A stretch of DNA of 64,000 nt. Source: Candidatus Micrarchaeia archaeon. GTDB taxonomy: Bacteria > Chloroflexota > Dormibacteria > Aeolococcales > Bog-877. The notes under the pieces were generated by a model, which saw only the letters and a list, made by a program, of their open reading frames with translations, had not been told where the DNA came from and searched no databases. This document shows, piece after piece, positions 3,650 through 51,335 of this stretch (positions are counted from its first letter, which is position 1; each line of letters begins with the position of its first letter). A program made the translations under genes and the position numbers. The DNA is taken from NCBI GenBank assembly GCA_035533215.1, contig DATLUG010000006.1:3958-67957 (forward strand), in the 5' to 3' direction.

Positions 3650-4954
3650 TCAAGGCCGCCACCGACGACCTCCACACGGAACGTCGCCCAACGCCCTCCA
3701 GCGAATCTGTTCGCCCGGGGGTGGCAGATCATGGCCGCGATCTGAACAGCGGGGTCGCCGAGGCCGCCGAACGCGATACTGGGCGCTGTCGTCGGCGAAG
3801 GTGGTGACCCCGCCGGCCGCGTCGGTCAGGCTGGTGAGGTTCCCGCTCCCGTCGTACGCCCGGTGGACCGAGCGCCCGAGCGGGTCGGTCGCGGCGGTCA
3901 GCTGCCTCCCCCCGTAGGCGAAGGTGAGCGCCCGCCCGGCCGAGTCCGTCACCTGCGTCAGCTGGCGACCGGTGTAGGTGCAGGTCGTCGGGTAGCCGTT
4001 GGCGTCGGTCTCCGACAGGAGCTGCCCCGACGCGCTGAGGTCGTAGCTCCACTGGTCGTTCAGCTCGGCGAAGGGGTCGGTGCCATCCTGGTTGGCCGTG
4101 CGGGTCGCCTGGGCCCGGGCCGGCGGCGTGACGGTCGAGCCGCTCTGGGCGAAGGGGACCGTGGCCCCGCCGGCCTGGGTGACCGTCGCCGTCCCGGCCG
4201 AGGGGTCGACGGTCACCGTCATCCCGTACGGCTCGCTCCAGCCGTCTCCGACCACCGCGGCCGAGTCGGTCGCGCCGTTCACCGCGCAGCGTCCGTGGGT
4301 GCAGGAGCGGAGCTCCTTCGCCGCAGGGGTGACGGTGCCGTCCTGGGTGGACGGCGCCAGCGGGTTGCCGATCAGCGTCCACGGATGGGACTCGTTCCGG
4401 GGCGGACACCCGGTTCCGCCGAGGTCGATCCCGCCGGTGTCGAGGATCTGAGTGCGGTCGGTGTGCGGATACGCCGTGCCGCCGGTCGTGCTGGTCACGG
4501 TGGGGATGAGCCCGTCCGGCGTGCAGCCCGGGACGCCGACGTCGGAGCTGTCGAAGTTCTCCCCGTCCGTCTGCGCCAGGATGCGGTTCCCGTTGGCCGG
4601 CACCGTCACGGCCGTGCCCCAGAGGTCGAAGGTGGCCGTCCCGATCTGCACCGACACGTCGGTCACCGCGATCGGCGAGCGGGTGGTGTCGCTCGGCTCG
4701 ATCGCCCCGCTGTCGTAGGTCGGTCCCGGGCCCACGACGGTCATGTTCGGCGCCCCGTCCCACGGGTTGGGGAAGAGCGGGCTGGCCCGCAGGGTGTCCG
4801 CGTAGCCCACCGACACGACGAGGGCCGCCGGGGCGGCCTGGACCGCCGCACCCATGACGCCCTGGCCGTGGCCCGCGACCGTTCCCCCGACCATGGCGAG
4901 CGCCATGACCGCGGCGGGGGGACAGAGCCGGTGGGGGCGGCGCGTGGCGGCCAT
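3650..4954 (-). pseudogene. Truncated secreted RHS/YD-repeat protein
   Basis: GGAGG RBS, signal-like N-terminus, then GDGW and YD-like repeats (YDLSASGQLLSETDANG, YTGRQLTQVTDSAGR, YDGSGNLTSLTDAAG) ending abruptly with no RHS core or toxin tip. Confidence 0.75.
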
Positions 4955-5318: not shown

Positions 5319-7028
5319 TCAGCGGTCACGGAACTGCGACCGGGCGACCCGGCTGCCGGGGAAGACGTCGAGCGCGGTCCGGAGGGAGGCACCCGAGGCC
5401 GCGGCCGGCAGCGGAGGGGCCGCCGGCTCGGACCGGACCAGGTCCACCGTCACCGGCCGTCCCACCACCTCGGCGCAGGCGTCCTCCAGGAGCCGGCGGG
5501 TCCCCGGCTCGCCGATCTGCTGGAGGTGGAAGGCGTGGGCGACCGCGATGGTCAGCCGGCCCTCCTCATACGCCACCGGCACCGCCGCCTTGAGCAGGGC
5601 CTGGGTGGGGACATGGCGACGCCGCACCTGCTCCAGGACGTCGACCCAGCGCACCTCCCAGCCAGCGACCGGCGGCACCGCGGGCGGGTCGTCGGGCGAA
5701 GCCGGGGCGGGCGCGGGCGCGGCGTCCGGTCCGGGGACGGCGCCGAGTCCCGGGGCGGGGTCGGCCGCGGAGATGGGCACCGGCAACCCTGGGGGCGCCT
5801 CCTCGGCGGCGGGGGCCGCCGCCGCCGCGGGGATCGGGGGGCGGCTCGGGAAAGGGGGTGCGGCGGCGAGCGGGACCGGGGCCGCGCTCGGGGGCGTCGC
5901 CGCGGCTCCCCCTCCCCGCGCCCGTCGCACCGGTGGGGGAGGCGCCGCCGCGCCCTCGCCGCCGGAATCGCCCAGGGCGAGGCGGAGCAGGACCACCTCC
6001 AGGGCCAGCCGGGGGTCGTCGGCCCGGCGCACCAGCACCATCCCCTCGGCGCACGCCGCCAGCATCTGGGCCCAGAACCCCGCGGGCGGCCGGCCCCCGG
6101 TGTCGGCCTTTGGCGACGCGACCGGCGCCAGCCCGCTGGCCGGGTCCCCGGCGAGGGTCGAGCGAGCGACCTCGGCCAGCGCCCGCAGGAGCTGGCGGGG
6201 GTCCGCCCCGCGGGCGTGCAGCCCCTCCAGCTCGCGCAGGACCCGGCCGGGGTCACCGCCGGCGAGCACCAGTGCCAGCCGGCCGACCGCGCCCGGGTCC
6301 ACCAGCCCGAGCGCCTCGCTCACCTGGGCGCCGGTGACCGCCGGCTCGCCGAGGCCGATGACCCGGTCGAGCAGGGAGATGGCGTCGCGCATCGAGCCCT
6401 GGGCGGCGTCGGCGATCAGGGCCAGCCCGTCGGCCTCCCCCGTCACCCCCTCCCGCTCGCAGAGGACGGCCAGCCAGGCCGCGATCGCGGCCTGGTCGAT
6501 GCGCAGGAAGTCGTACCGCTGGCAGCGCGAGAGCACCGTCTCCACCAGCTTGTGCGGCTCGGTAGTGGCGAGGATGAAGCAGACGTGCGGGGGCGGCTCC
6601 TCCAGGGTCTTGAGGAAGGCGTTGGCGGCGGCGTCGGTGAGCATGTGGGCCTCGTCGACGATGTAGACCTTGCGGCGGAGGTGGGCGGGCAGGAAGCGCA
6701 CCCGCTCGCGCAGGTCCCGGATCTCGTCGATGCCGCGGTTGGTGGCGGCGTCGATCTCGATCACGTCGAGGGAGCTGCCGTCCAGGCACTCCTGGCAGGC
6801 CTCGCAGCGGTTGCAGGGCTCGCCCGTGTCCGGCTCCAGGCAGTTGACGGCGCGGGCCAGGATCCGCGCCGCCGAGGTCTTGCCGGTGCCGCGGATGCCG
6901 GTGAAGAGGTAGGCGTGGCTGACCCGGCCGTCGCGCACCGCGGCCCGCAGGGTGCGGGCGATCGCTCCCTGGCCGACCAGCTCGGCGAAGGTGCGCGATC
7001 GGTACTTGCGGTAGAGGGTCTCGCTCAT
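5319..7028 (-). CDS. dnaX: DNA polymerase III subunit gamma/tau
   Basis: LYRKYRSRTF, Walker A GIRGTGKTS, CNRCEAC, EIDAATNRGIDEIR, DEAHML, LKTLEEPP, SRC; Pro/Ala-rich linker. Confidence 0.97.
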   Translation of the reverse strand: MSETLYRKYRSRTFAELVGQGAIARTLRAAVRDGRVSHAYLFTGIRGTGKTSAARILARAVNCLEPDTGEPCNRCEACQECLDGSSLDVIEIDAATNRGIDEIRDLRERVRFLPAHLRRKVYIVDEAHMLTDAAANAFLKTLEEPPPHVCFILATTEPHKLVETVLSRCQRYDFLRIDQAAIAAWLAVLCEREGVTGEADGLALIADAAQGSMRDAISLLDRVIGLGEPAVTGAQVSEALGLVDPGAVGRLALVLAGGDPGRVLRELEGLHARGADPRQLLRALAEVARSTLAGDPASGLAPVASPKADTGGRPPAGFWAQMLAACAEGMVLVRRADDPRLALEVVLLRLALGDSGGEGAAAPPPPVRRARGGGAAATPPSAAPVPLAAAPPFPSRPPIPAAAAAPAAEEAPPGLPVPISAADPAPGLGAVPGPDAAPAPAPASPDDPPAVPPVAGWEVRWVDVLEQVRRRHVPTQALLKAAVPVAYEEGRLTIAVAHAFHLQQIGEPGTRRLLEDACAEVVGRPVTVDLVRSEPAAPPLPAAASGASLRTALDVFPGSRVARSQFRDR

Positions 7029-7090
7029 CGCTCCTCGCCGGCCGTCGTCCCCCTGGGGCGCCAGGGTCGAGCCGCCCCCCCACCAGGGAC

Positions 7091-7359
7091 AGTCGCGCAC
7101 CCCCCGTCGTGAAGACGCCCCCGGCGCGGGTCCGGTGGACGGGCTCGGGTCGGGGTGCCCGACGGCACCCCCGGCGCCCCGCGGACCGCTGCTTCCTTCC
7201 GGACCTGACGGGATTGGCGGGACCGGGTTGCGTCGGATCCGGCCGTCAACGCTCGAACCATCGGGGCTGCCCGACGACGCCTCCCCTCGGGGGGGAGTTC
7301 GACCCCGCTATAGCGGTTTGCGGGTACAGGGCACCGCTACCTCCCCGTCTAGCGCGACC
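7091..7359 (-). ncRNA. ffs: Signal recognition particle RNA, large bacterial (Alu-domain) type
   Basis: 5' Alu-like GCTAGACGGGGAGGTAGCGGTGCCCTGTACCCGCAAACCGCTATAGCGGG; helix 8 TCAGGTCCGGAAGGAAGCAGC; terminal stem GTCGCGC/GCGCGAC; sits upstream of dnaX; TACAAT at 7366-7371. Confidence 0.95.
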
Positions 7360-8033
7360 GCGCCCATTGTATCGGCGCCGGAGGGCGGCGGTGGGGCGGT
7401 CCCGGACGGGACCGCCCCGGTGACCCCGGGCGGCGGGGCGGGGTCGCCGAGCCGGTGCTCGGCGCCGCCCAGCAGGCGGGCGATGTTGCCGCGGTGGCGC
7501 AGCACCAGCAGCCCCGCCGCGAAGCAGGTGTAGGCGCGCACCGCCCCCGCGATCCGGGGGGAGCGGAAGGACGCCGCGGCCGCGGTCCCCGCCCCCGCCA
7601 AGGACCCCAGCGAGACGTAGCGGGTGGCGGCGATGACCGGGAGGCCGCCGATCAGGGCCAGCCCCGCCGTGCCCGGCTCCAGGGCCAGCAGCGAGCCGAT
7701 CGTGACCATGACGCTGCGGCCGCCCCGGAACCCGGCCAGGCACGGCCAGCTGTGGCCGACGCCGGCGCCGGCGGCGGCCGCGGCCTGCGCCAGGGCGCCC
7801 CCGCCCAGCTGGCGGACCACCGCCGGTGCCACGTACCCCTTCGCCGCGTCCAGGCAGAGGGTGGCGACGCCGGCCCCCGTCCCGGCGGTCCGGAGCACGT
7901 TGGTGGCGCCGCTGCTGTGGCTGCCGTAGCGACGGACGTCGACGCCGGCGAGCAGGCGCCCGACCGCGACCCCGGTCGGGATGGACCCGACCAGGTACCC
8001 CAGCGTCGCCGCCGCGATCGTGCCCCCACGCAT
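7308..8033 (-). CDS. plsY: Glycerol-3-phosphate acyltransferase PlsY
   Basis: GYLVGSIP, GSHSSGATNVLR, LDAAKG, GHSWP, RYVSLGS, HRGNIARL. Confidence 0.92.
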   Translation of the reverse strand: MRGGTIAAATLGYLVGSIPTGVAVGRLLAGVDVRRYGSHSSGATNVLRTAGTGAGVATLCLDAAKGYVAPAVVRQLGGGALAQAAAAAGAGVGHSWPCLAGFRGGRSVMVTIGSLLALEPGTAGLALIGGLPVIAATRYVSLGSLAGAGTAAAASFRSPRIAGAVRAYTCFAAGLLVLRHRGNIARLLGGAEHRLGDPAPPPGVTGAVPSGTAPPPPSGADTMGAVALDGEVAVPCTRKPL

Positions 8034-8140: not shown

Positions 8141-9082
8141 ATGACGACCACCGCCCTCCCCCAGGCCGCCGCCAGCGCCCCCTCCCGCCCCCGTGTGCGG
8201 CTCGACGACCTCGACCTCCCCACCGGCAAGCGGGCCCGCCTCCACACCCTCCTCCACGACCACGGCCCCGGCAACGGCACCCTCCTGCTCCTGCCCATCG
8301 ACCAGGGGCTGGAGCACGGCCCGGTCGACTTCTTCGTCAACCCGCCCGCGCTCGATCCCGACTTCCAGTGCCAGCTGGCGCTCCGCGGCGGCTTCTCGGG
8401 GATCGCCCTCCAGGTGGGGCTCGCCACCCGCTACCTGCGCCCGTACGCGGGCCGGGTGCCGCTGGTGCTGAAGGTCAACGGCAAGACCAACGTCCCGTCC
8501 GGGGACGACCCCATCTCGCCGCTGACGGCGTCGGTCGAGGACGCCGTCCGCCTGGGCGCCTCGGCGGTCGGCTACACCCTCTACGTCGGGTCCCCGGCCC
8601 AGGACCGCGACCTCCGCCAGATGAACGAGGTTCGCCAGGCCTGCGACCGCACCGGGATGCCGCTGATCTGCTGGGCGTACCCGAGGGGCGCGGCGATCGA
8701 GCGCCGGGGCGGCCAGAACAGCCTCTACGCCATCGACTACGCCGCCCGGGTGGCGGCCGAGATGGGCGCCGACGTGATCAAGCTCAACGTCCCGCAGGAG
8801 CACGGTGCCGCGGACGGGGCGTCCCCGGCGCCGTACGACACCCTCGCCGAGGACCGCCGCAGCATGCTGGCCCGGGTGATCCGCTCGGCCGGTCGGAGCC
8901 TGGTGATCTTCGCCGGCGGCAGCAAGCTGGCCGACGAGGCCCTGCTGGGGCGCATCCACGACGCGATGGCGGCCGGGGCGACCGGCTTCATCTTCGGCCG
9001 CAACATGTGGCAGCGGCCGATCGACGAGGCGCTGGCGATGACGGCGCAGGTACGCGAGCTGCTGGCCGCCTCCGGCGGCTGA
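8141..9082 (+). CDS. fbaB: Class I fructose-bisphosphate aldolase (DhnA/FbaB type)
   Basis: LPIDQGLEHGP, AVGYTLYVGS, WAYPRG, GADVIK (Schiff-base Lys), FAGG, GRNMWQR. Confidence 0.9.
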   Translation: MTTTALPQAAASAPSRPRVRLDDLDLPTGKRARLHTLLHDHGPGNGTLLLLPIDQGLEHGPVDFFVNPPALDPDFQCQLALRGGFSGIALQVGLATRYLRPYAGRVPLVLKVNGKTNVPSGDDPISPLTASVEDAVRLGASAVGYTLYVGSPAQDRDLRQMNEVRQACDRTGMPLICWAYPRGAAIERRGGQNSLYAIDYAARVAAEMGADVIKLNVPQEHGAADGASPAPYDTLAEDRRSMLARVIRSAGRSLVIFAGGSKLADEALLGRIHDAMAAGATGFIFGRNMWQRPIDEALAMTAQVRELLAASGG

Positions 9083-9101
9083 GCCGGCCGCCAGGGGCCG
9101 G

Positions 9102-10544
9102 TCAGAAGCCGAGGAAGAGCGGCCGCGCCGCCCGCTGGGCCAGCCCGATCAGGGGGCCCGCGACCGGGCCGCCGAGGACGAGGGCGAGCCCGCACAGCCC
9201 CAGCCCGCACGCCACCAGCGGCTCCGGCCAGGAGACCTCGTCGCCCTCGGCGTCCGGGTCCAGCAGCACCGCGGCCCAGCGCAGCCCCGCCGCCCCGGCC
9301 AGCACCAGCGCCAGCGCCGCCACCCAGGCGACCCACCCGTAGCCGGCCGCGACCGCCGCGCCCAGGACGCTGAACCAGCTGAGGAAGCCGGCCAGCGGCG
9401 GCAGCCCGACGAGGGCGACGAGGACCAGCACCAGCGCCGCGCACGGCCCCGGCGAGCGTCCCCAGAGCCCGCGCAGCCGCTCCCGTCCGCTCCGCTCCTC
9501 GCCCACCCAGAGCACCACCCCGAGGCTGCCGGCGGCGAGGGGGGCCAGCAGCAGGGTGGCGAAGAGGGCCGCCGCCGCGCCGTGGCGGCTCTGCGCCGGC
9601 AGGGCGGTGAGCACCAGCGCCCCGTCCCCCGCGAGCAGGAGCAGGACCAGCTGGCGCAGGGTGCCGGCGCGGAGCGCCAGGGCCGCCGCGACCAGGGCGG
9701 TGCCGCTCCCCAGCACCGCCACCAGCACCGTCCAGGCGGCCGGGACGTGGGGGAAGCCGGCCTCGAGGACGCGCACCAGGGCGGCGAGGTCGGCGGTCCC
9801 CCCCACGACGCACACCGCCAGCACCGCGGCCAGCGGCGCCCGCCCGGCGCCGCTGGCGCGCCAGCCCAGGAACGGCCCCAGCCCCAGCAGCGCGCCGCCC
9901 CCCATCACCAGCGCGGTCGCCGCCAGCACCTGGGCCGGGTGGGGATGGGCGAGGGCGCGGGCGACCACCGCCAACCGGGTGGAGCCGGTCAACCCGTAGG
10001 TGACGACCACCCCCAGGAGGAGGCAGGCCACACCGGCGGCCAGCAGGCAGAAGGTCTGGAGTGCGGCGGCCGCCGCGGCCCCGTCCAGCTTGCGCAGCCC
10101 GACCAGAAGGCTCGCCGCCACCGCCGCCACCGTCAGGCCGACCGCGATCGTGACCAGATCCTGGCTGGCGGCGGTGACCATGCCGCCGAGGGTGAGGAGG
10201 AGGACCAGCGCGGTGAACTCCCCCTGCAGCGGCCAGAGGTCGCGGGCGGCCGCGGCGGTGCAGCAGAGCACCGCCACCGTCCCCGCCAGCAGGACGGCGT
10301 GGAGGAAGAGCGCGTAGCGGTCGACGAGGAAGCTGCCGTGCTCGATGTCGGGCACCGCCGGGCCCAGCGAGGGGTGCCAGAGCAGGACGCTGTCGGCGAA
10401 GGCGAAAAGGCAGGCGGCGATCCCGATCGCGGTCACCACGGAGGCGGGGTGCTCCCCGCGCCGACGCCCGGCGGCGAGGGCCGCCGCCGCGCCCAGCAGG
10501 ATCACCCCCTCGGGGCCGAGGTCGGCGAGGAAGCCCAGGGTCAC
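9102..10544 (-). CDS. NuoN-like antiporter-family membrane subunit, highly divergent
   Basis: FLVDRYALF, GEFTALVLL, YGLTGS, LRGLWGRSP, LVGLPPLAGF; GTG start overlaps the upstream TGA. Confidence 0.8.
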   Translation of the reverse strand: MTLGFLADLGPEGVILLGAAAALAAGRRRGEHPASVVTAIGIAACLFAFADSVLLWHPSLGPAVPDIEHGSFLVDRYALFLHAVLLAGTVAVLCCTAAAARDLWPLQGEFTALVLLLTLGGMVTAASQDLVTIAVGLTVAAVAASLLVGLRKLDGAAAAAALQTFCLLAAGVACLLLGVVVTYGLTGSTRLAVVARALAHPHPAQVLAATALVMGGGALLGLGPFLGWRASGAGRAPLAAVLAVCVVGGTADLAALVRVLEAGFPHVPAAWTVLVAVLGSGTALVAAALALRAGTLRQLVLLLLAGDGALVLTALPAQSRHGAAAALFATLLLAPLAAGSLGVVLWVGEERSGRERLRGLWGRSPGPCAALVLVLVALVGLPPLAGFLSWFSVLGAAVAAGYGWVAWVAALALVLAGAAGLRWAAVLLDPDAEGDEVSWPEPLVACGLGLCGLALVLGGPVAGPLIGLAQRAARPLFLGF

Positions 10545-12160
10545 CGAGGGCCCCCGCCCGCCGCCAGGACCAGCGCCGCGCCCACCACCGGCAGCGCCGG
10601 CACCGCCGGCACGATCGCAGCGGGCGCCTCGGCGGCGAGACGCCCGGAGACCAGGTCGGTGCCGTTGACCATGTAGGGCAGGAAGCGGCCCGACCCGAGC
10701 CCGAACAGGAGCAGGAAGGCGGTGAGGACCGCCCCCGCGTAGAGCTCCGAGCCCTCGGCGTCGCGCAGCCGGGGCACGTTCTCCCCCGGCGGCCCCAGGA
10801 ACACCCGGCTCCCGGCCCGCCACAGGGCCGCCCCCAGGACCAGGATCGCCAGGCAGCCCGCGGCCACCCCGTAGCGATGGGCCGGGAAGGTGCCCACGAA
10901 GACCTGGAGGAGGGCCGGGAAGCCCGCCAGCAGCGGGATCCCCACCACCCCCCCGGCCCCCACCACCCACAGCAGGCTGAGCCGGGGCGCCGGCTGGCCG
11001 CAGCCGCCCAGGTCGCTGAGCCGGCGGGCCCGGAGGCGCTCGGTGAGCGCGCCCGCGACCAGCAGCAGGAGCGGGAGGGCGAGGCTGGCCGCGAGGAGCA
11101 GGTAGAGGGCGCCGGCGATCGAGGTCTCGGAGGAGCCCACCATGCCGAGGACCACCAGGCCGCCCACGCACACCACCACGTAGCCGATCAGCCGGCGCAG
11201 CTCCTGGACGGCGTAGGCGCCGAAGGCGCCCCAGAGCATGGTGAGCACGGCCAGGCCCAGCAGGGGGGTGGCGAGGTGGTCGGCCCCCCGGGGGGCGGCG
11301 TCCAGCGCCACCCGGGCCAGGGTGTAGCCGCCGGTGAGCAGGCCGGTCGCGACCGTCAGCATCGCGATCGGCGGTCCCGAGGAGGAGACGGCGTCGATCA
11401 CCGGCAGGTGGCCCGGCACCAGCCCCATCCGCAGGATGCACGCCGCCACCACCAGCGCGAAGACCCCGGTCGAGACCCCGTGGGGCAGGGTCAGCTGGGT
11501 GGACAGGGTCCCGAGGTCGAGGCCCCGCTGGCCGGCGCGGCCCGAGAGCAGCAGCGCCGCACAGACCAGCAGGCCCGAGCCGAGCAGCCAGCTGGTGAGG
11601 AGGCGGCGGGCGGCGCGGGCGGCCCGGGGGCCGCCCCCGAGGCGGACCAGGAGGGCGACCGGGGCCACCGGCCAGAGGAAGAACAGGATGAGGAGGCCGA
11701 GGTCGTAGGCGGCGAGGCATCCCAGCAGCCCCACCCCGCTGAACAGGAGGAGGCCGAAGTGGAGACGGGTGCGCTCGCGCACCCGCCACGAGGCCAGCAC
11801 CACGACCACCAGCAGGATGGTGGCGACGAAGAGGAGCGGGAAGTTCAGGCCGTCGCCGCCGAGGTGGTAGCCCACCGGGACCGGCACCCCGGGGACCCAG
11901 CCGGCGCGGACCGCGGGCTGGGCCAGCCCGCCCTGGCCGGCGTTGGCGAGGACCCCGAAGAAGTCGAAGCCCGCGAACACGAACGAGACGAGGGCCGCCC
12001 CCAGGGCGGTCACCCGAACCCGGAAGCGCTGGAGGTCGGTCGCCACCGGAAGGCAGGCGATGATCCCCGCCCCCACCAGCGGCGCGAACACGATGATCGA
12101 GAGGGTGACGTCGGGCGGCGCCGCCGACCCCGCCAGCGCGACCAGGGCCGAGGCGATCAC
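10541..12160 (-). CDS. NuoM-like antiporter-family membrane subunit, divergent
   Basis: YHLGGDGL, AAYDLGLL, ELRRLIGY, LTERLRARRLSDLGG, GIPLLAGF, RVFLGP; GTGA coupling. Confidence 0.85.
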   Translation of the reverse strand: MIASALVALAGSAAPPDVTLSIIVFAPLVGAGIIACLPVATDLQRFRVRVTALGAALVSFVFAGFDFFGVLANAGQGGLAQPAVRAGWVPGVPVPVGYHLGGDGLNFPLLFVATILLVVVVLASWRVRERTRLHFGLLLFSGVGLLGCLAAYDLGLLILFFLWPVAPVALLVRLGGGPRAARAARRLLTSWLLGSGLLVCAALLLSGRAGQRGLDLGTLSTQLTLPHGVSTGVFALVVAACILRMGLVPGHLPVIDAVSSSGPPIAMLTVATGLLTGGYTLARVALDAAPRGADHLATPLLGLAVLTMLWGAFGAYAVQELRRLIGYVVVCVGGLVVLGMVGSSETSIAGALYLLLAASLALPLLLLVAGALTERLRARRLSDLGGCGQPAPRLSLLWVVGAGGVVGIPLLAGFPALLQVFVGTFPAHRYGVAAGCLAILVLGAALWRAGSRVFLGPPGENVPRLRDAEGSELYAGAVLTAFLLLFGLGSGRFLPYMVNGTDLVSGRLAAEAPAAIVPAVPALPVVGAALVLAAGGGPR

Positions 12161-14238
12161 GGGGCCGCCCCGCCGGCGTGGTGGAGCCCGACCCAGAGGG
12201 CGAAGCCGGCCACCGCCAGGACGAAGGTGGCCACCGTTGCCGCCGCGGCCGCCTCGCGGCGCCACAGGCACACCCGGTCGAGCCATCCGGCCGCCCCCCG
12301 CACCGCGTCCCCCACCGCTTGGAAGCCCGCCCCCTCGATCCTGGCGTCGACCGCCAGCAGCGCGCGTCCGGGCGCGGTGAGCAGCACCCGCTCAGCCGCC
12401 CCGAGCCCGCCGAGGGCGAGCGCCGCCGCCGCCGGCCTCGCCGGGTCCGGTCCGCCGCCGAGCTCGACGGAAGGGGGGCGGAGCCCATCCGTCTGCCCCA
12501 CGGGCGGTCGGGCGGGGCCGAGCCGGCCGCGCCAGCCGACCCAGGCGGCCGCCGCCGGCAGGGCCAGGGTCAGGAGCAGCGCCGCCCCGTTCACGGGAAG
12601 GCCCGGACCGCCGGGCGGGGTGGCGACGAAGGCCCCCAGGCTCGGCCCCACCCCGGGCAGGACCGCCAGCCCGCTGACCAGCGCGAGGCCGGCCGCCCCC
12701 AGCAGGGCCGGCGCGAGGGTCCGCCCGCCGCGGTCGGGCCGGGCGTGGGGCCGGCGGGGGTGGCGCCGCGGCGACGCCGGCTGCGGCTCGGGGATGGGGG
12801 CCAGCCCCCGCGCCACCGCGGCGGCGGCGGCGGCGCCGGCCACCACGACCCCGACCCCGGCCAGCAGCCGGGCCACCGGGTCGATCGCGGTCCCGGCCGG
12901 CAGCCGGGCGGCCCAGGCCGCGCCGAGGATGGCGGAACGGGCGAAGAACGCGCCCATCCCGACCCCGCCCCCGAGGGCGAGGCACCCGAGGAGGCAGGCC
13001 CACCCCACCGGCCCCTGGGACCGCATCGCCAGCCAGGACGGGCGGGGACCGCCGCCGCGGGCCGCCATCACCCCCAGCGCTCCGAGGACGGCGGGCGTCG
13101 CCAGCGCCACCGTGGCCGCCAGCGCGGCGGCGCCGGCCACCGTCCCCAGCCCGACGCCGACGACCGCGGTGGCCAGGCCGCTGGCGGCGAGCCAGAGCAC
13201 CCGGCGGTCCAGCGGACCGGTGCGGAACGCCAGCACGGCGAAGCCGGCGGCGGCGGCGGCGGCGGCGACCACCACCGCCGGGAGCACGTGGGTCGCGACC
13301 TCCAGCAGGACCACGGTGCGGCTGAGCACCGCCACCCCGCCCAGGCCCAGGCCGACGACCGCGATCCAGGCCGTGGCCACGCCCGCCGCCGACGTGGCCC
13401 GGCGCGAGACCGCGGTGAGGGCGACCGCCGCCACCAGGACGGCGGCCGCGGCCAGCTCCAGCACCGCGGCGAGGACCAGGGAGCGCGCCCCCACCCCGGT
13501 GACGGTGCCGTGCGGCGCCGCCAGCCAGCGGCCGGCGAGCGCCACGAAGCTGAAGCCGTCGGCGTAGGTGGCCGAGGGGTGGCGTCCGGAGGTGGCGGCG
13601 GCCTCGATCGCGCCCGAGAACTTGGCGTCCAGGAAGACCGCCGCCAGGACCAGGCCCACCGCGGCCAGCCAGCCGGCCAGGAACAGCCGGCGCGCCGCGA
13701 TCCGAAGGCCGACGGTGTGGGCGTCGTCGGCGGCGGCGAGGTAGCCGGCCAGAGCCAGGAGCCCCACCGCCGCGGCCGCCTGCACATACCCCGGTGCCAG
13801 CACCAGCCCCAGCGCCGCCGCCGTCGCGAGCGCCACCGCCCGGTGGAGGACCACGGTCTGGCCGGCGGCCCTGGAGGTGGAGAGGAGGAAGCACTGGAGG
13901 GTGAGCGCCGACACCGAGACCGCGAGGGCGAGGGTCACGCTGAGGGGGTCGACCAGGATCCCGACCGAGGGCTGGAGGGTCGCCGCCAGCAGGGTCCTGG
14001 TGGCGGCATTGAAGGGGGTCTGGATCACCGGGTAGGTGAAGACCGGCACCGTGTTCTGGTACGTGGGCCGACCCTGGGCGAGCTCGAAGCCGAGGAGGAG
14101 GACCGCGGCGACGACCACCAGCATCGCCCCCACGGTGAGGGTGACCGCGATCGCCCGGCGGGTCTCGACCGCATAGCTGAGGACGATGAAGGCGAGGGGG
14201 AGGAAGCAGACCGCCCACCCCAGGTTCAGCAGGGTCAC
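12157..14238 (-). CDS. NuoL-like antiporter-family membrane subunit, highly divergent
   Basis: About 693 aa, hydrophobic; GILVDPLSVTL, LGLVLAPGY, GAFFARSAIL; C-terminal amphipathic region AVDARIEG; J-K-L-M-N gene order. Confidence 0.75.
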   Translation of the reverse strand: MTLLNLGWAVCFLPLAFIVLSYAVETRRAIAVTLTVGAMLVVVAAVLLLGFELAQGRPTYQNTVPVFTYPVIQTPFNAATRTLLAATLQPSVGILVDPLSVTLALAVSVSALTLQCFLLSTSRAAGQTVVLHRAVALATAAALGLVLAPGYVQAAAAVGLLALAGYLAAADDAHTVGLRIAARRLFLAGWLAAVGLVLAAVFLDAKFSGAIEAAATSGRHPSATYADGFSFVALAGRWLAAPHGTVTGVGARSLVLAAVLELAAAAVLVAAVALTAVSRRATSAAGVATAWIAVVGLGLGGVAVLSRTVVLLEVATHVLPAVVVAAAAAAAGFAVLAFRTGPLDRRVLWLAASGLATAVVGVGLGTVAGAAALAATVALATPAVLGALGVMAARGGGPRPSWLAMRSQGPVGWACLLGCLALGGGVGMGAFFARSAILGAAWAARLPAGTAIDPVARLLAGVGVVVAGAAAAAAVARGLAPIPEPQPASPRRHPRRPHARPDRGGRTLAPALLGAAGLALVSGLAVLPGVGPSLGAFVATPPGGPGLPVNGAALLLTLALPAAAAWVGWRGRLGPARPPVGQTDGLRPPSVELGGGPDPARPAAAALALGGLGAAERVLLTAPGRALLAVDARIEGAGFQAVGDAVRGAAGWLDRVCLWRREAAAAATVATFVLAVAGFALWVGLHHAGGAAP

Positions 14239-14615
14239 GCCGCGGGTCCCCCCCCGTCCACGGTGGCGGCCGCGGGCACCGCCTCCGCCCGGGGCCCCGG
14301 GGGCGGGTCGGGGAGGGCCAGGTCCGCCTGGGCCAGGCTCTCCAGCGCGCGCCGGCGGGCGACGACGGCGAGCGCGGCGCCGGCGCCGACCACCGCGGTC
14401 GCGCAGACCAGCACCACCAGCGCCAGCACCGCGCCGGTCGCCGCCCGCCCGGGGTCGGCGAGGCCGAAGCCACTCGCGCCCAGCATCACGCCGCTGAAGA
14501 GGATCGCGATCCCCACCAGCTGGCCCAGGGCGTCGCGGCGGGCGATGACCCCGTAGCCGCCCACGGCGACGAGGCCGGCGGCGAGGCCGAGGGCGACCGC
14601 GGCGGCCGCGGTCAC
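14235..14615 (-). CDS. NuoK-like subunit, divergent
   Basis: Three TM helices, GGYGVIARRDALGQLVGI resembles G..G...RRN; position between the J-like and L-like genes. Confidence 0.75.
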   Translation of the reverse strand: MTAAAAVALGLAAGLVAVGGYGVIARRDALGQLVGIAILFSGVMLGASGFGLADPGRAATGAVLALVVLVCATAVVGAGAALAVVARRRALESLAQADLALPDPPPGPRAEAVPAAATVDGGGPAA

Positions 14616-15199
14616 GGGCGCAGCCCCCGCCGGGCGGCGCGGGCGGCGGCGCGCTGGGCGGCCCGGGCCCGCTGGGCCGCGACCCGGCGCCGGTGCGCCT
14701 CGACGGCGGCGACCTCGGCCGCCTCGCGATGGTCGCGGACCGCCACCGCCGCCCCGATCGCCGCCACCATCGCCACCAGCACCACCGCCAGCTCCACCGG
14801 GACGGCATAGCCGAGCAGGAGGGTGTGCCCGACCGACGGGCCGGGTCCGGGCCGATGGACCCACGCCCTCCCGGTGCTGACCCCGATGCCGACCAGCAGA
14901 CCGCAGAGCCCCACCGCCGCCCCGGCGGCCGGCCCCGATCGGGCCCAGCCGCGGGTCGGCTCGCCCCCCTCCGTGCCGGGATCGGCGAGCGGTGCGAGCA
15001 GGAGCAGCTGGGCCACCAGCCCCAGCAGCAGCTGGGCGACCGCCACCACGACCAGCCCGGCGACGAGGAGCGCCAGCCCGAGCGCGAGCTGGCACAGCCC
15101 GAACGCCGCCAGCGTCGCACCGCGGCCCTGGCGGAGGGCCGCGGTGCCGGCCGCCCCCAGCGCCACCCCGCCGAGGGCCGCCACGGCGACGGCCGTCAT
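14612..15199 (-). CDS. NuoJ-like subunit, divergent (alternative GTG start at 15289)
   Basis: Five hydrophobic segments; VGHTLLLGYAVPVELAVVLVAMVAAIGA matches the NuoJ C-terminal G..L...Y..PFE motif. Confidence 0.75.
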   Translation of the reverse strand: MTAVAVAALGGVALGAAGTAALRQGRGATLAAFGLCQLALGLALLVAGLVVVAVAQLLLGLVAQLLLLAPLADPGTEGGEPTRGWARSGPAAGAAVGLCGLLVGIGVSTGRAWVHRPGPGPSVGHTLLLGYAVPVELAVVLVAMVAAIGAAVAVRDHREAAEVAAVEAHRRRVAAQRARAAQRAAARAARRGLRP

Positions 15200-15298
15200 C
15201 GGCGGGAGCGGGGCGCGGCGCGCCGGCGACGCGCGGCCGGTCGTGGCCCCGGCCGCCGGGCGGCGGGGCGCGAGAGGGCCGTCGCGCACATCCGCGCC

Positions 15299-15304
15299 AT
15301 TGTA
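15299..15304 (-). promoter_or_regulatory. Putative -10 element (TACAAT) for the nuoJKLMN-like operon
   Basis: ATTGTA on + strand in the gap between the polyprenyl synthase and the nuoJ-like gene. Confidence 0.55.
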
Positions 15305-15384
15305 GGGAGGGCGGCCGGGGGCCACCGGCGGGCGACCGGGGAGGCGACGGGGGCCCCTGCCCCCCCGCGGTCCCGCCGGCCCCG

Positions 15385-16881
15385 TCAGCGGTCGCGGACC
15401 ACCAGGCGGTCGGTGTAGGCGGCGAGGCGCCGCCGGGCCCGATCCGGCAGCGGCGCCAGCGCGGCCAGGGCCTCCGCCGACCACTCGTCGGCGAGGGCCC
15501 GGGCCGCGGCCAGCGCCCCGCTCTGCCGCACCAGCCCCACCACCTGCAGGCTGGCCGCCTCCGCCGCCGGGCCCGGGTCGGCGGCGTCGAGCCGGCGCAG
15601 GGCCGAGAGGACGTCGGCGCGAGCCGCCCCCCGCAGCGCGCAGATCAGCGGCAGGGTGCACAGCCCCTGGGCCAGGTCCAGCCCGGCCGGCTTGCCGGTC
15701 AGCAGCGGGTCGGCGAAGTCCAGGCAGTCGTCGATCCCCTGGAACGAGAGCCCGAGGAGGTGGGCGTAGCGGAGCAGGGCGCGCCGCTGGGGCCAGGGGG
15801 TGCGGCTGAGCCGGGCCCCGGTCTCCACGCAGGCGCCCAGGAGGGCGCCGGTCTTGCCCGCCGCCACCTGCCGGTAGCCACCGAGCTGGGCGGTCCAGCG
15901 GCGGCGTCCGTCCAGCTCCCGCAGCTGGGCCTCCGCGATCCGCACCAGGGAGCGGGTGATCGCCCGGGCGATCGCGGGGTCGCCGAGGCCGCAGAGCAGC
16001 TCGGCCGATCGGCCGAGGTAGTGGTCCCCGACCGCGAGCGCTGTCAGCGCCCCGCGATCGCTGGCGACCGTCGGGGCCCCGCGGCGCGAGGCCGCCCCGT
16101 CGACCAGATCGTCGTGGCAGAGGGTGGCGGCGTGGAGGAGCTCGATGGCGGCGGCGCCGACCACGGCCCGCTCGGGGTCGTAGCGGGGCCCGACCTCAGC
16201 GGCGAGGAGGACCAGCCCGGCCCGCAGCCGCTTGCCGCCCGCCCCCAGCAGGAGCGCCATCGGGCCCGCCAGCCCCGGGGGGTCCTGGAGCAGGCGGCCG
16301 CCCAGCCATCGCTGCACCGGGTCCCGGGAGGCGCGCAGCCGGTCCAGCGCCGGGGTGTCGGCCGGGGCAGGCCCCAGGGCGGCGCCGCCGCCCGCGAGCG
16401 CCGCCCCGGCGCGCCACCACCTGGCCTGCGCCGTCCCCGGAAGCCGCGCCGCCGACGCCCCGGCGAGGCCGCAGGCGGGAAGGAGCTGGCGGGCCGCCCG
16501 GGCCGCCTCGTCGCCGGCGGCGAGGGCGCCGGCGGCCGCCGCCACCCCGCGGGCGAAGGCCGCCTGCACGACCAGGTCGGAGTGGCCCGACAGCGCCTGG
16601 GAGGCGCGGGCCAGGCAGTAGTCGCCGGCCAGGGTGGCGAGTCCGACCGGCTCCTCCCGGGTGGCGGCGGCGTGGTGCCACTCCAGCGCCCGCTCCACCA
16701 GCTCGGCGGCAGCGGCGGCGTGGACCGCGCCCGCCCCGGCCCGCTCCCCGGACGCCGCCGCCCGCAGGGTGAGCCGGGCCGGCAGGCCCAGGCTGGGGCG
16801 AGCGCGGCCGAGACCGCGGGACCAGGCGAGGCGCGACACCACCGCCTGGGTCTCGGTCAGCATCGGCGCCGCGATCGCCAT
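15385..16881 (-). CDS. Long-chain trans-polyprenyl diphosphate synthase with an N-terminal degenerate synthase-like domain
   Basis: C-terminal GGKRLR, ELLHAATLCHDDLVD (FARM), RRG, KTGAL, FQGIDDCLD (SARM); N-terminal AELVERALEWH and LAGDYCLARA lack DDxxD. Confidence 0.85.
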   Translation of the reverse strand: MAIAAPMLTETQAVVSRLAWSRGLGRARPSLGLPARLTLRAAASGERAGAGAVHAAAAAELVERALEWHHAAATREEPVGLATLAGDYCLARASQALSGHSDLVVQAAFARGVAAAAGALAAGDEAARAARQLLPACGLAGASAARLPGTAQARWWRAGAALAGGGAALGPAPADTPALDRLRASRDPVQRWLGGRLLQDPPGLAGPMALLLGAGGKRLRAGLVLLAAEVGPRYDPERAVVGAAAIELLHAATLCHDDLVDGAASRRGAPTVASDRGALTALAVGDHYLGRSAELLCGLGDPAIARAITRSLVRIAEAQLRELDGRRRWTAQLGGYRQVAAGKTGALLGACVETGARLSRTPWPQRRALLRYAHLLGLSFQGIDDCLDFADPLLTGKPAGLDLAQGLCTLPLICALRGAARADVLSALRRLDAADPGPAAEAASLQVVGLVRQSGALAAARALADEWSAEALAALAPLPDRARRRLAAYTDRLVVRDR

Positions 16882-16947: not shown

Positions 16948-17247
16948 TCAGCGGCCGCGGCCGCCGGAGCCGGGCCACGCCCGCCCGAGCGCCGCCGCGC
17001 CGCCCAGCCCCACCAGCGCCGCCACCACCGCGAGAACGAAGAGCGGGGTGGGGTGGGCGCCCCCGAGGGCGGGGACCGCGGCCACCAGGACCGTCAGCGC
17101 GACCAGCCCCAGCCATGCGATGGGTCCCGGGAGCCGGAGGCGGCCGAGGCCGGAGGCAAGGGCCCCGAGGCCGCGGTCGGGCCACCAGGCCGTGACCCCC
17201 GCCGCCGCCGCCGCCGCGACGATCGCCGCCGCCGCCGCGGCGATCAC
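16948..17247 (-). CDS. Small 3-TM membrane protein, possibly a degenerate NuoA
   Basis: 99 aa, three hydrophobic segments, GTG start overlapping the upstream TGA. Confidence 0.5.
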   Translation of the reverse strand: MIAAAAAAIVAAAAAAGVTAWWPDRGLGALASGLGRLRLPGPIAWLGLVALTVLVAAVPALGGAHPTPLFVLAVVAALVGLGGAAALGRAWPGSGGRGR

Positions 17248-17564
17248 CGGGTCCCGTCCTTGGTCGCGGCGACCGCCCCCAGCGGCCCGGCGGGCGCCGA
17301 GGTGGTGATCACGAAGGCGAGGAGGAGGAAGGCGACCGTCGCCGCCAGGAGGGTGACCACCGAGACCCCGCCCGCCACCACCGGGCCCTCGCCGGCGTTC
17401 AGCTGGGCCAGCTGGGCCCCCCCCGCGACCGCCAGCGCCAGGGCCACCCCCCACAGCGCCGCGCGCCGGCGCTGCCACGCCGCCCGGACCGCCACCACCA
17501 CGGCGAAGCACCCGAGGCCGGCGAAGCAGAGGAGGACCACCCCGATGATCCAGGAGAACTTCAC
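17244..17564 (-). CDS. Small 3-TM hypothetical membrane protein
   Basis: VKFSWIIGVVLLCFAGLGCFAVVV...; GTGA overlap with the mnmA stop. Confidence 0.6.
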   Translation of the reverse strand: MKFSWIIGVVLLCFAGLGCFAVVVAVRAAWQRRRAALWGVALALAVAGGAQLAQLNAGEGPVVAGGVSVVTLLAATVAFLLLAFVITTSAPAGPLGAVAATKDGTR

Positions 17565-51261: not shown

Positions 51262-51335
51262 TGGAGGCGACTCCGGGAATCGAACCCGGGATCGCGGTTT
51301 TGCAGACCGCTGCCTTACCACTTGGCTAAGTCGCC
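51262..51335 (-). tRNA. tRNA-Cys(GCA)
   Basis: GGCGACTTAGCCAAGTGGTAAGGCAGCGGTCTGCAAAACCGCGATCCCGGGTTCGATTCCCGGAGTCGCCTCCA; TACAAT upstream. Confidence 0.97.

Follow-up and report, generated by a model that had tools for sequence, protein, structure and literature searches.

Why would a bacterium keep the membrane arm of respiratory complex I at a locus that encodes no redox partner for it, and in a form from which the residues of the proton path have disappeared? We examined this question for a cluster of five genes resembling nuoJ, nuoK, nuoL, nuoM and nuoN in a 64,000-nucleotide stretch of the genome of a soil-dwelling member of the Dormibacteria (phylum Chloroflexota; assembly GCA_035533215.1, contig DATLUG010000006.1, positions 3,958 to 67,957 of the forward strand); the whole stretch is called the window below. 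The buried charges of this module are gone, selectively, and its large subunits are under selection as strong as that on the canonical genes of the same organism. The five genes are what remains of a larger operon, and the complex that they would form may serve a structural purpose.

The G+C content of the window is 72–80%, and open frames are therefore found on both strands. The coding frames were accordingly set by the third-position G+C (GC3), which reaches 0.95–0.99 in a single frame at any given point, and by the way in which the low and middle codon positions follow each other. This order, together with the mapping of starts and stops, places all five genes on the minus strand, where they are intact and run in the order NuoJ-K-L-M-N from 15199 (or 15289) to 9102:

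15279..15307, minus strand: upstream conserved block with TACAAT (15304..15299), a candidate -10 element located some 100 nt ahead of the J-like ATG (15199)
14612..15199, minus strand: NuoJ-like gene, 195 aa from the ATG at 15199 (225 aa if the GTG at 15289 is used)
14235..14615, minus strand: NuoK-like gene, 126 aa (PF00420)
12157..14238, minus strand: NuoL-like gene, 693 aa (hhalign, AF2, Foldseek)
10541..12160, minus strand: NuoM-like gene, 539 aa, with the highest conservation among the five (PF00361, TIGR01972)
9102..10544, minus strand: NuoN-like gene, 480 aa (PF00361, TIGR01770)

A preliminary description of this DNA had reported five full-length open reading frames (ORFs) in J-K-L-M-N order, GTGA overlaps at every junction and a TACAAT element upstream, and all three observations were confirmed. 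The GTGA overlap is present on the coding strand at four of the four junctions. The canonical nuo operon of the same genome also has 4-nt overlaps at I/J, J/K, K/L, L/M and M/N, and such overlaps are thus usual in this genome rather than a distinctive feature of the locus. The ATG at 15199 is more likely to be the start of the J-like gene than the GTG at 15289, because the coding signal begins at about 15208 and the orthologues begin at a matching Met or Val. The TACAAT belongs to a block of some 29 nt that the congener G001 shares without change, although the spacer around it differs (the comparison covers the window genome, G000, and G001), and the module apparently has its own promoter at this block. 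A scan of 8900–15600 for the sigma-70 consensus gave no promoter-like site, a single terminator-like site, located in the M-like gene, is within chance expectation (1 found vs 0.7 expected), and an Rfam search of the J leader gave no match.

The relationship of the five proteins to complex I subunits was assessed with family models, profile comparisons and structure prediction. In Pfam, the K-like protein matches PF00420 (30.1 bits vs a cut-off of 26.1), and the M-like and N-like proteins match PF00361 (80 and 67.6 bits, respectively, vs a cut-off of 21.5). The nearest NCBIfam models are NuoM for the M-like and NuoN for the N-like protein, with scores below the curated cut-offs (188.1 bits vs 263.8 for TIGR01972, and 125.7 bits vs 332.6 for TIGR01770), and the J-like and L-like proteins give traces only, the J-like protein reaching an expectation value (E) of 1.3e-4 with the NCBIfam NuoJ model. 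Neither of these two has a Pfam match, the L-like protein giving neither PF00662 nor PF00361. A profile built from 19 L-like orthologues and compared by hhalign with a profile of nine canonical NuoL proteins aligned with a probability of 100% (E 1.9e-56, 621 columns). A model of the L-like protein by AlphaFold2 (AF2) has a mean predicted local distance difference test score (pLDDT) of 77 and a predicted template modeling score (pTM) of 0.81, with a poor C-terminal 110 residues, and a Foldseek search with it returned exclusively NuoL/ND5/NdhF chains among the 50 matches listed. The model contains a long C-terminal helix (603–649) and a last helix (664–686), both with pLDDT 38–50.

The J-like protein is the most diverged. 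It aligns with NuoJ by hhalign (probability 96.6%, E 6.6e-10), but the segment of canonical NuoJ that carries the third transmembrane helix (TM3) and the invariant Tyr59 falls in a gap and cannot be aligned to it, and with no PF00499 match either, the protein falls outside NuoJ as defined by that family. It is nevertheless the positional orthologue of a J protein in a sister-family genome (G026) that scores 131.5 bits with PF00499. Five helices are predicted, followed by a C-terminal helix about 40 residues long with many Arg, Glu and Ala (residues 154–195, 14612–14740; RDxREAAE...RRRR...QRxAARAA), which is kept in seven of seven aligned family members and is the sole part of the AF2 J model with pLDDT above 90. 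A complex prediction bearing on the hybrid enzyme considered below, which combined canonical NuoH and canonical NuoA with the K-like and J-like proteins, gave 0.19 and 0.21, under a mark of 0.32, and is given no weight in either direction. Because the profile comparisons, the family matches and the fold search with the L-like model agree, the five genes are genuine, though highly diverged, homologues of NuoJ, K, L, M and N.

The proton path was examined at columns that are invariant in nine canonical operons, from this genome and its relatives, with E. coli numbering obtained through HMMER alignments to 3rko_L, 3rko_M and 3rko_K. The NuoN columns are the paralogous columns of NuoM, with residue names from PMC13073174. 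The window proteins retain the canonical residue at none of the 21 key proton-path positions (0/19 across L, M and N):

K-like protein: E36 to A37, E72 to V75; both membrane glutamates are gone
L-like protein: E144 position to G159, D178 to A193, K229 to L268, H254 to A, H334 to L, H338 to V, K342 to T, K399 to R, D400 to S
M-like protein: E144 to L162, K234 to R244, K265 to L275, H322 to V332, H348 to A, E407 to L417
N-like protein: TM5 Glu to T138, TM7 Lys to L219, TM8 Lys to G249, TM12 Lys to W390

Conservative changes among the 19 L, M and N positions of the window are limited to Lys-to-Arg at M K234 and L K399. Every replacement that had been read by eye in the M-, N-, L- and K-like proteins was reproduced by the alignment with the nine canonical paralogues and the E. 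coli mapping, which left no Glu or Lys at a canonical position.

This loss is targeted and selective. Of the columns that do not vary among the 14 charged homologues, the window proteins keep 86 of 222 non-key columns (39%) and none of the 18 key columns (Fisher p = 4.4e-4), and even when only the other invariant D/E/K/R/H residues are considered, 15 of 34 are kept vs 0/18 (p = 7.7e-4). The M-like protein, for example, retains the loop residues D103, D153, H251, R283, D467 and E472. The L-like protein shows no replacement set of mid-membrane polar residues, its family-invariant charges being located at helix ends. The importance of the proton-path positions is established; in E. coli, the NuoN replacements K247A and K395A remove most of the NADH oxidase and pumping activity (PMC13073174). 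Since all the buried Glu, Lys and His residues are gone, proton movement along the path used by canonical complex I and Mrp is impossible for this module, which cannot use that path.

The window contains no nuoB-I partners, as had been noted from the sequence, and no nuoA, B, C, D, H or I is present at the locus. Elsewhere in the assembly (2.6 Mb, 82% complete), contig C39 carries nuoA, B, C, D, F, G, H, I, J, K, L, M and N; NuoE was not detected on C39 in the single frame scanned. The canonical L, M and N proteins on this contig score 218–247 bits with PF00361, and H scores 398 bits. For each of NuoA, B, D and H the assembly yields just one match, on C39 in every case, and NuoC and NuoI were seen on C39 only. 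The canonical operon that the preliminary description had proposed to look for is thus present and fully charged, and the organism respires via this separate, complete nuoA-N operon.

Where, then, did the five-gene module come from? In G026, the cluster containing the closest M protein is a full nuoA-B-C-D-H-I-J-K-L-M-N operon. Full nuoABCDHIJKLMN operons are also found in G147, from another order of the class, and in the more distant G116 and G047 of the same phylum. An 11-subunit complex I-like enzyme without NuoEFG is a described type (PMC11238625). The operons of G026 and G147 occupy the same slot as the five-gene clusters, between mnmA and plsY/dnaX, and the five-gene form thus arose by in-place deletion of nuoA-I. 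In the M tree, the five-gene and 11-subunit types group together with an unplaced metagenome protein (P0016), apart from the canonical proteins (Shimodaira–Hasegawa-like approximate likelihood ratio test, 96). A second full-score NuoH (349 bits) is found only in G026 among the 41 genomes of the order. The concatenated L+M+N tree, rooted on distant genomes, requires at least two origins of the five-gene state; fast-evolving rows may attract each other on this tree, and the true number of origins could be higher; taxonomy labels hint that there may have been four. The gene trees and the shared slot show the module to be a remnant of an 11-subunit operon, left after deletion of nuoA-I, which occurred at least twice on the gene tree.

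Many genomes of the window's family contain a third, weak NuoH-like gene of 92–127 bits (e.g., G001:C18, G008:C140, G005:C102, and G018:C95); none was found in G000. In the cases viewed it lies near more weak PF00361 matches, perhaps as part of a hydrogenase-type or other complex I-like cluster.

The related genomes form a graded series. All nine canonical operons keep their own key-residue set, and the five charged 11-subunit-type operons (four confirmed complete, and G092, whose contig ends upstream of J) keep all 21 residues, while every five-gene cluster has lost some of them. In one family (G164 and G056) most of L and N is kept, with Gln in place of M E144 and E407; roughly half of the key residues survive in G031 and G033, and few in the remaining members of the sister family and in a fourth family. 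In the window's family, no channel residues are left in any of the ten loci, the window included, the sole remaining canonical residue being a Glu at the L E144 position in five of the ten. Former Lys sites are occupied by Arg in this family at M K234 (10/10), at L K399 (Arg or His, 10/10) and at the TM12 Lys of N (7/9), and these arginines may act as fixed charges stabilizing the broken helices. The charges thus disappeared after the redox partner, and gradually, the more reduced lineages having lost more of them.

The canonical NuoL of all nine Dormibacteria operons has Ser or Ala at the position of the TM5 Glu (E. coli E144), including the protein encoded at 11912–13921 of C39, and the same nine proteins keep D178, K229, H254, K342 and K399. 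The NuoL of the charged 11-subunit-type operons retains Glu at this position.

M-like orthologues (E ≤ 2e-51) are present in 39 of the 41 genomes of the order, with identities of 80–84% within the genus, 43–55% within the family and 31–36% in the sister family. The 18 related loci examined share one neighborhood, in which mnmA and a small membrane gene are followed by J-K-L-M-N and then by deoC, plsY or dnaX. Counting the window, all 19 loci have intact and tightly packed L and M genes, and 18 have such an N gene, a frameshift being possible in G007. The N-like gene of that genome (C21, about 5843–7305) seems to be split between two frames, and the M-like match of G016 (C6:40617–41657) is partial, covering residues 4–350 with two stops; breakage or an assembly error is possible in either case. 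The unpublished genomes G010, G013, G022, G032 and G035 are included in the order-wide M-like and NuoH tallies, and G010, G022 and G035 also in the alignments, the key-residue table, the trees and one substitution-rate comparison (G019 with G010). The main conclusions hold without them, and G000/G001, G008/G017, G026, G147 and the remaining loci are not so flagged.

Ratios of nonsynonymous to synonymous substitution rates (dN/dS) were obtained by the Nei–Gojobori method (NG86); a GC3 near 0.98 compresses dS and leaves the absolute ratios soft, and weight is placed only on the comparison with canonical genes and with shifted frames. Between G000 and G001, the ratio in the module is 0.37 for L, 0.27 for M and 0.36 for N, vs 0.34, 0.24 and 0.29 for the canonical genes, and the same alignments read out of frame give 1.4–2.5. 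Other pairs gave 0.24–0.30 (G008 with G017) and 0.11–0.17 (G019 with G010). Selection on the L, M and N genes of the module is as strong as on canonical nuoL, nuoM and nuoN, and the module is inherited vertically under purifying selection. The preliminary description had left two outcomes open: a repurposed, non-pumping membrane arm (perhaps a scaffold, an uncoupled arm or a carrier of hydrophobic substrates), or an early stage of decay. A repurposed, non-pumping arm is supported by the loss of all proton-path residues, the order-wide conservation at one locus, and dN/dS values of de-charged orthologues that resemble those of the canonical genes and are not near 1. Early decay is not supported, as the charge loss is old, common to all ten family loci examined, and accompanied by intact frames.

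The history can be read as follows. The ancestor possessed a second complex I-like enzyme of 11 subunits (nuoABCDHIJKLMN), without NuoEFG, from which the quinone-module and membrane-foot genes (nuoA, B, C, D, H, and I) were deleted in place. Without a redox partner, the remaining module lost the whole chain of buried Glu, Lys and His residues; it nevertheless retains the antiporter-like fold, the loop Asp and Arg residues that shape it, the gene order and the apparent promoter, and is under purifying selection. J, K, L, M and N would still assemble as in complex I, given the same subunits in the same order and the long C-terminal and terminal helices of the L-like protein, which are modeled with low confidence. 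The product would be a stand-alone, non-conducting proton-pumping-type module (P-module), kept for a structural or scaffolding role. We regard this reading, in which assembly, autonomy and role are all conditional, as about evenly balanced between right and wrong.

Several observations weigh against it. Assembly into a complex is predicted from homology, and a "structural role" specifies no concrete mechanism. The AF2 model of the J-like protein is poor (pLDDT 63, pTM 0.36), and the region of the L-like protein that would form the lateral helix is the low-confidence C-terminal part mentioned above. The proteins consist of 60–68% Ala, Gly, Leu and Val, vs 47–55% in the canonical copies, and contain 0–1 Lys each. 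The J-, K-, L- and N-like genes evolve about twice as fast as the canonical ones (dN 0.24–0.32 vs 0.06–0.14), and for K the dN/dS between G000 and G001 is 0.57 in the module and 0.15 in the canonical operon; the softness of the absolute ratios belongs here as well. This simplified make-up and faster evolution would fit weakened constraint. Two genomes of the order, G027 and G029, have canonical M only and lack the module, which is therefore dispensable in some lineages. Finally, an assembly that is 82% complete leaves room for a hidden second quinone module (Q-module).

An alternative is a hybrid enzyme, in which the five-gene arm docks on canonical NuoA-I and yields a complex I isoform that oxidizes NADH and pumps few or no protons; such an isoform could help at high membrane potential or in dormancy. 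J and K are the subunits that touch NuoH and NuoA in solved complex I structures, and the module includes homologues of both. The two sets coexist in 39 of the 41 genomes of the order, the module's own conserved promoter-like block would permit separate regulation, and a similar idea has been raised for the Streptomyces nuo2 cluster (PMC9239103). However, the J-like protein has diverged furthest, with no Pfam match and with the unalignable Tyr59 segment. In E. coli NuoN, the single replacements K247A and K395A cut NADH oxidase activity to 10–17% and left 6–8% of pumping (PMC13073174), and a fully de-charged arm might therefore stall the enzyme rather than uncouple it. Moreover, the charges went only in lineages without their own nuoA-I, which suggests that no redox partner imposes a constraint on the arm, and Gilliamella keeps nuoJKLMN without any catalytic-subunit genes (PMC11325843). 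We consider the hybrid enzyme unlikely.

Alternatively, the module could be a transporter or conduit using another route, passing a hydrophobic species (a quinone, a polyprenyl lipid, or a gas) through its apolar core, or ions via unrecognized residues. The conserved Arg at three former Lys sites in the window's family would be compatible with this, as would the polyprenyl diphosphate synthase gene directly upstream and the family-specific invariant polar residues of the M-like protein (e.g., D17, D42, R45/47/49, and S344-E345-T346-S347). Yet arginine carries a fixed charge and is poorly suited to passing protons on, and the conserved polar residues lie in loop-like segments of low hydropathy. 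The synthase is adjacent in the window's family only, not in the sister family or other orders, and the vicinity encodes no partner enzyme of the CupA or DabA kind. A conduit is accordingly improbable in our judgment. The idea of a non-functional relic in slow decay, for which too little time has passed or whose expression is harmless, draws on the simplified composition and faster evolution, the complete loss in G027 and G029, the possible breakages in G007 and G016, and the reading of nuoJKLMN in Gilliamella as a genome-reduction remnant by the authors of that report (PMC11325843), but it is very doubtful in view of frames, lengths and 4-nt overlaps that remain intact in 19/19 loci for L and M and 18/19 for N down to 31–36% identity, dN/dS values like those of working canonical genes and far under the out-of-frame values, and the retention of 39% of invariant non-channel columns vs 0% of channel columns, a discrimination that neutral decay would not make.

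How does the five-gene module compare with known systems? It resembles the P-module of complex I in its five homologous subunits, gene order and 4-nt overlaps, in the predicted NuoL fold of the L-like protein and in the retained loop Asp and Arg residues, but differs in having no adjacent nuoA-I, none of the 21 key residues and NuoM and NuoN scores below the curated cut-offs. With the 11-subunit type of G026, G147, G116 and G047 it shares direct ancestry, the slot (in G026 and G147) and a grouping of the M proteins; what sets that type apart from the window's module is the presence of A, B, C, D, H and I in the operon and of all 21 key residues. The Mrp (Mnh/Pha) antiporter is a stand-alone membrane complex of NuoL-, NuoM- and NuoK-like subunits. 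The M-like protein gives weak matches to MrpD models, but NuoM and NuoN models outscore the Mrp models, and the Glu/Lys pairs of the antiporter are absent. The locus moreover comprises five genes only, with a convergent deoC right after N, and contains no small genes of the MrpE/F/G type; it thus does not belong to Mrp as judged at this locus, no genome-wide search with MrpE/F/G profiles having been made.

Two partial nuo clusters are described in other bacteria. In Gilliamella, orphan nuoJKLMN was found in 95 of 95 genomes examined, with no catalytic-subunit genes, and was interpreted by the authors as a remnant of genome reduction (PMC11325843). Exactly the same five genes are thus kept after loss of the other nuo genes in Gilliamella (Orbaceae), although the phylum is different and the window genome has a separate canonical operon as well. 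The module has the gene content of an orphan nuoJKLMN, and what it has in common with Gilliamella is this pattern, not descent. Streptomyces nuo2 is a second, partial nuo cluster of unclear function, which is reported to lack NuoCDEFG and NuoL (PMC9239103). It is likewise a second incomplete cluster beside a canonical operon, but, on the same account, keeps A, B, H, I and others. In a literature search that was partly loosely targeted and did not cover supplements, we found no published account of a conserved de-charged nuoJKLMN arm or of a second nuo cluster in Dormibacteria.

De-charging of NuoM is not confined to Dormibacteria. A profile of the M-like proteins of the window's family was searched against 1.84 billion cluster representatives, and the best 150 matches were scored: all six NuoM key residues are present in 86, and no more than three in 39, of which two are fragments. 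Ten low scorers were looked up, and four of them bear the names of cultured Paenibacillaceae (Paenibacillus algorifonticola, P. protaetiae, Paenibacillus sp. SYP-B4298, and Gorillibacterium sp.). De-charged NuoM sequences of this group have the accessions WP_046231334.1, WP_129442768.1, WP_270166286.1 and WP_347771701.1. The Paenibacillaceae NuoM homologues (P0095, P0183-P0186, P0092, P0162, P0119, and P0097) have lost five or six of the six residues, and realignment confirmed that the replacements lie within well-aligned motifs. They form their own clade, with charged proteins between it and the Dormibacteria clade, and NuoM de-charging therefore happened more than once. Of the 94 members of the wider Paenibacillus family, 86 retain the full set of six. 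A broader and distinctly tentative idea is that the J-K-L-M-N arm is autonomous, performing a function that is independent of both redox partner and proton path, so that selection would preserve the arm but not its charges once the catalytic genes are lost. The parallel origins in Dormibacteria (at least two), the look-alike in Gilliamella and the separate Paenibacillaceae NuoM could then represent a recurrent "pseudo-pump", an undescribed scaffold or conduit.

The remaining features near the module and elsewhere in the window are as follows:

15385–16881, minus strand: polyprenyl diphosphate synthase, with PF00348 at residues 204–422 and, before it, an N-terminal extension (about 200 residues) that GC3 marks as coding and that matches no family
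17244–17564, minus strand: small membrane protein of three helices and 106 aa, with no family, after mnmA
7093–7357, minus strand: bacterial large signal recognition particle (SRP) RNA (147 bits), between dnaX and plsY, overlapping the low end of the ORF at 7308–8033 that was scanned as plsY
51265–51335, minus strand: tRNA, which with the SRP RNA makes up the only Rfam matches in the window
3650–4909, minus strand: RHS-repeat ORF with three PF05593 stretches, where the G+C drops to 0.71

The synthase gene sits where nuoA-I lie in G026. Since it is adjacent only in the window's family, it is a weak lead as a functional partner. The small three-helix gene keeps its place after mnmA in each of the two families of the order; this holds for G026 too, in which an NDH-2 gene is found downstream of it. 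It was considered as a possible subunit of the module and rejected, because it is linked to mnmA also in G026, where it precedes NDH-2 and the full operon.

In complex I research, the chain of buried Glu, Lys and His residues is seen as the reason for the membrane arm. Here this chain is gone from four subunits, and the fold, gene order and selection are kept. The related genomes provide a graded series from fully charged to stripped arms, showing which residues go first after loss of the redox module, and allow a test of roles of the arm beyond pumping, such as membrane organization, docking or lipid handling. The de-charged NuoM of cultured Paenibacillaceae could bring this question to the bench. 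The finding is also a warning for annotation: genes of this kind are routinely named "NADH-quinone oxidoreductase subunit M" or "proton-conducting transporter" and are counted as respiratory capacity in metagenomes.

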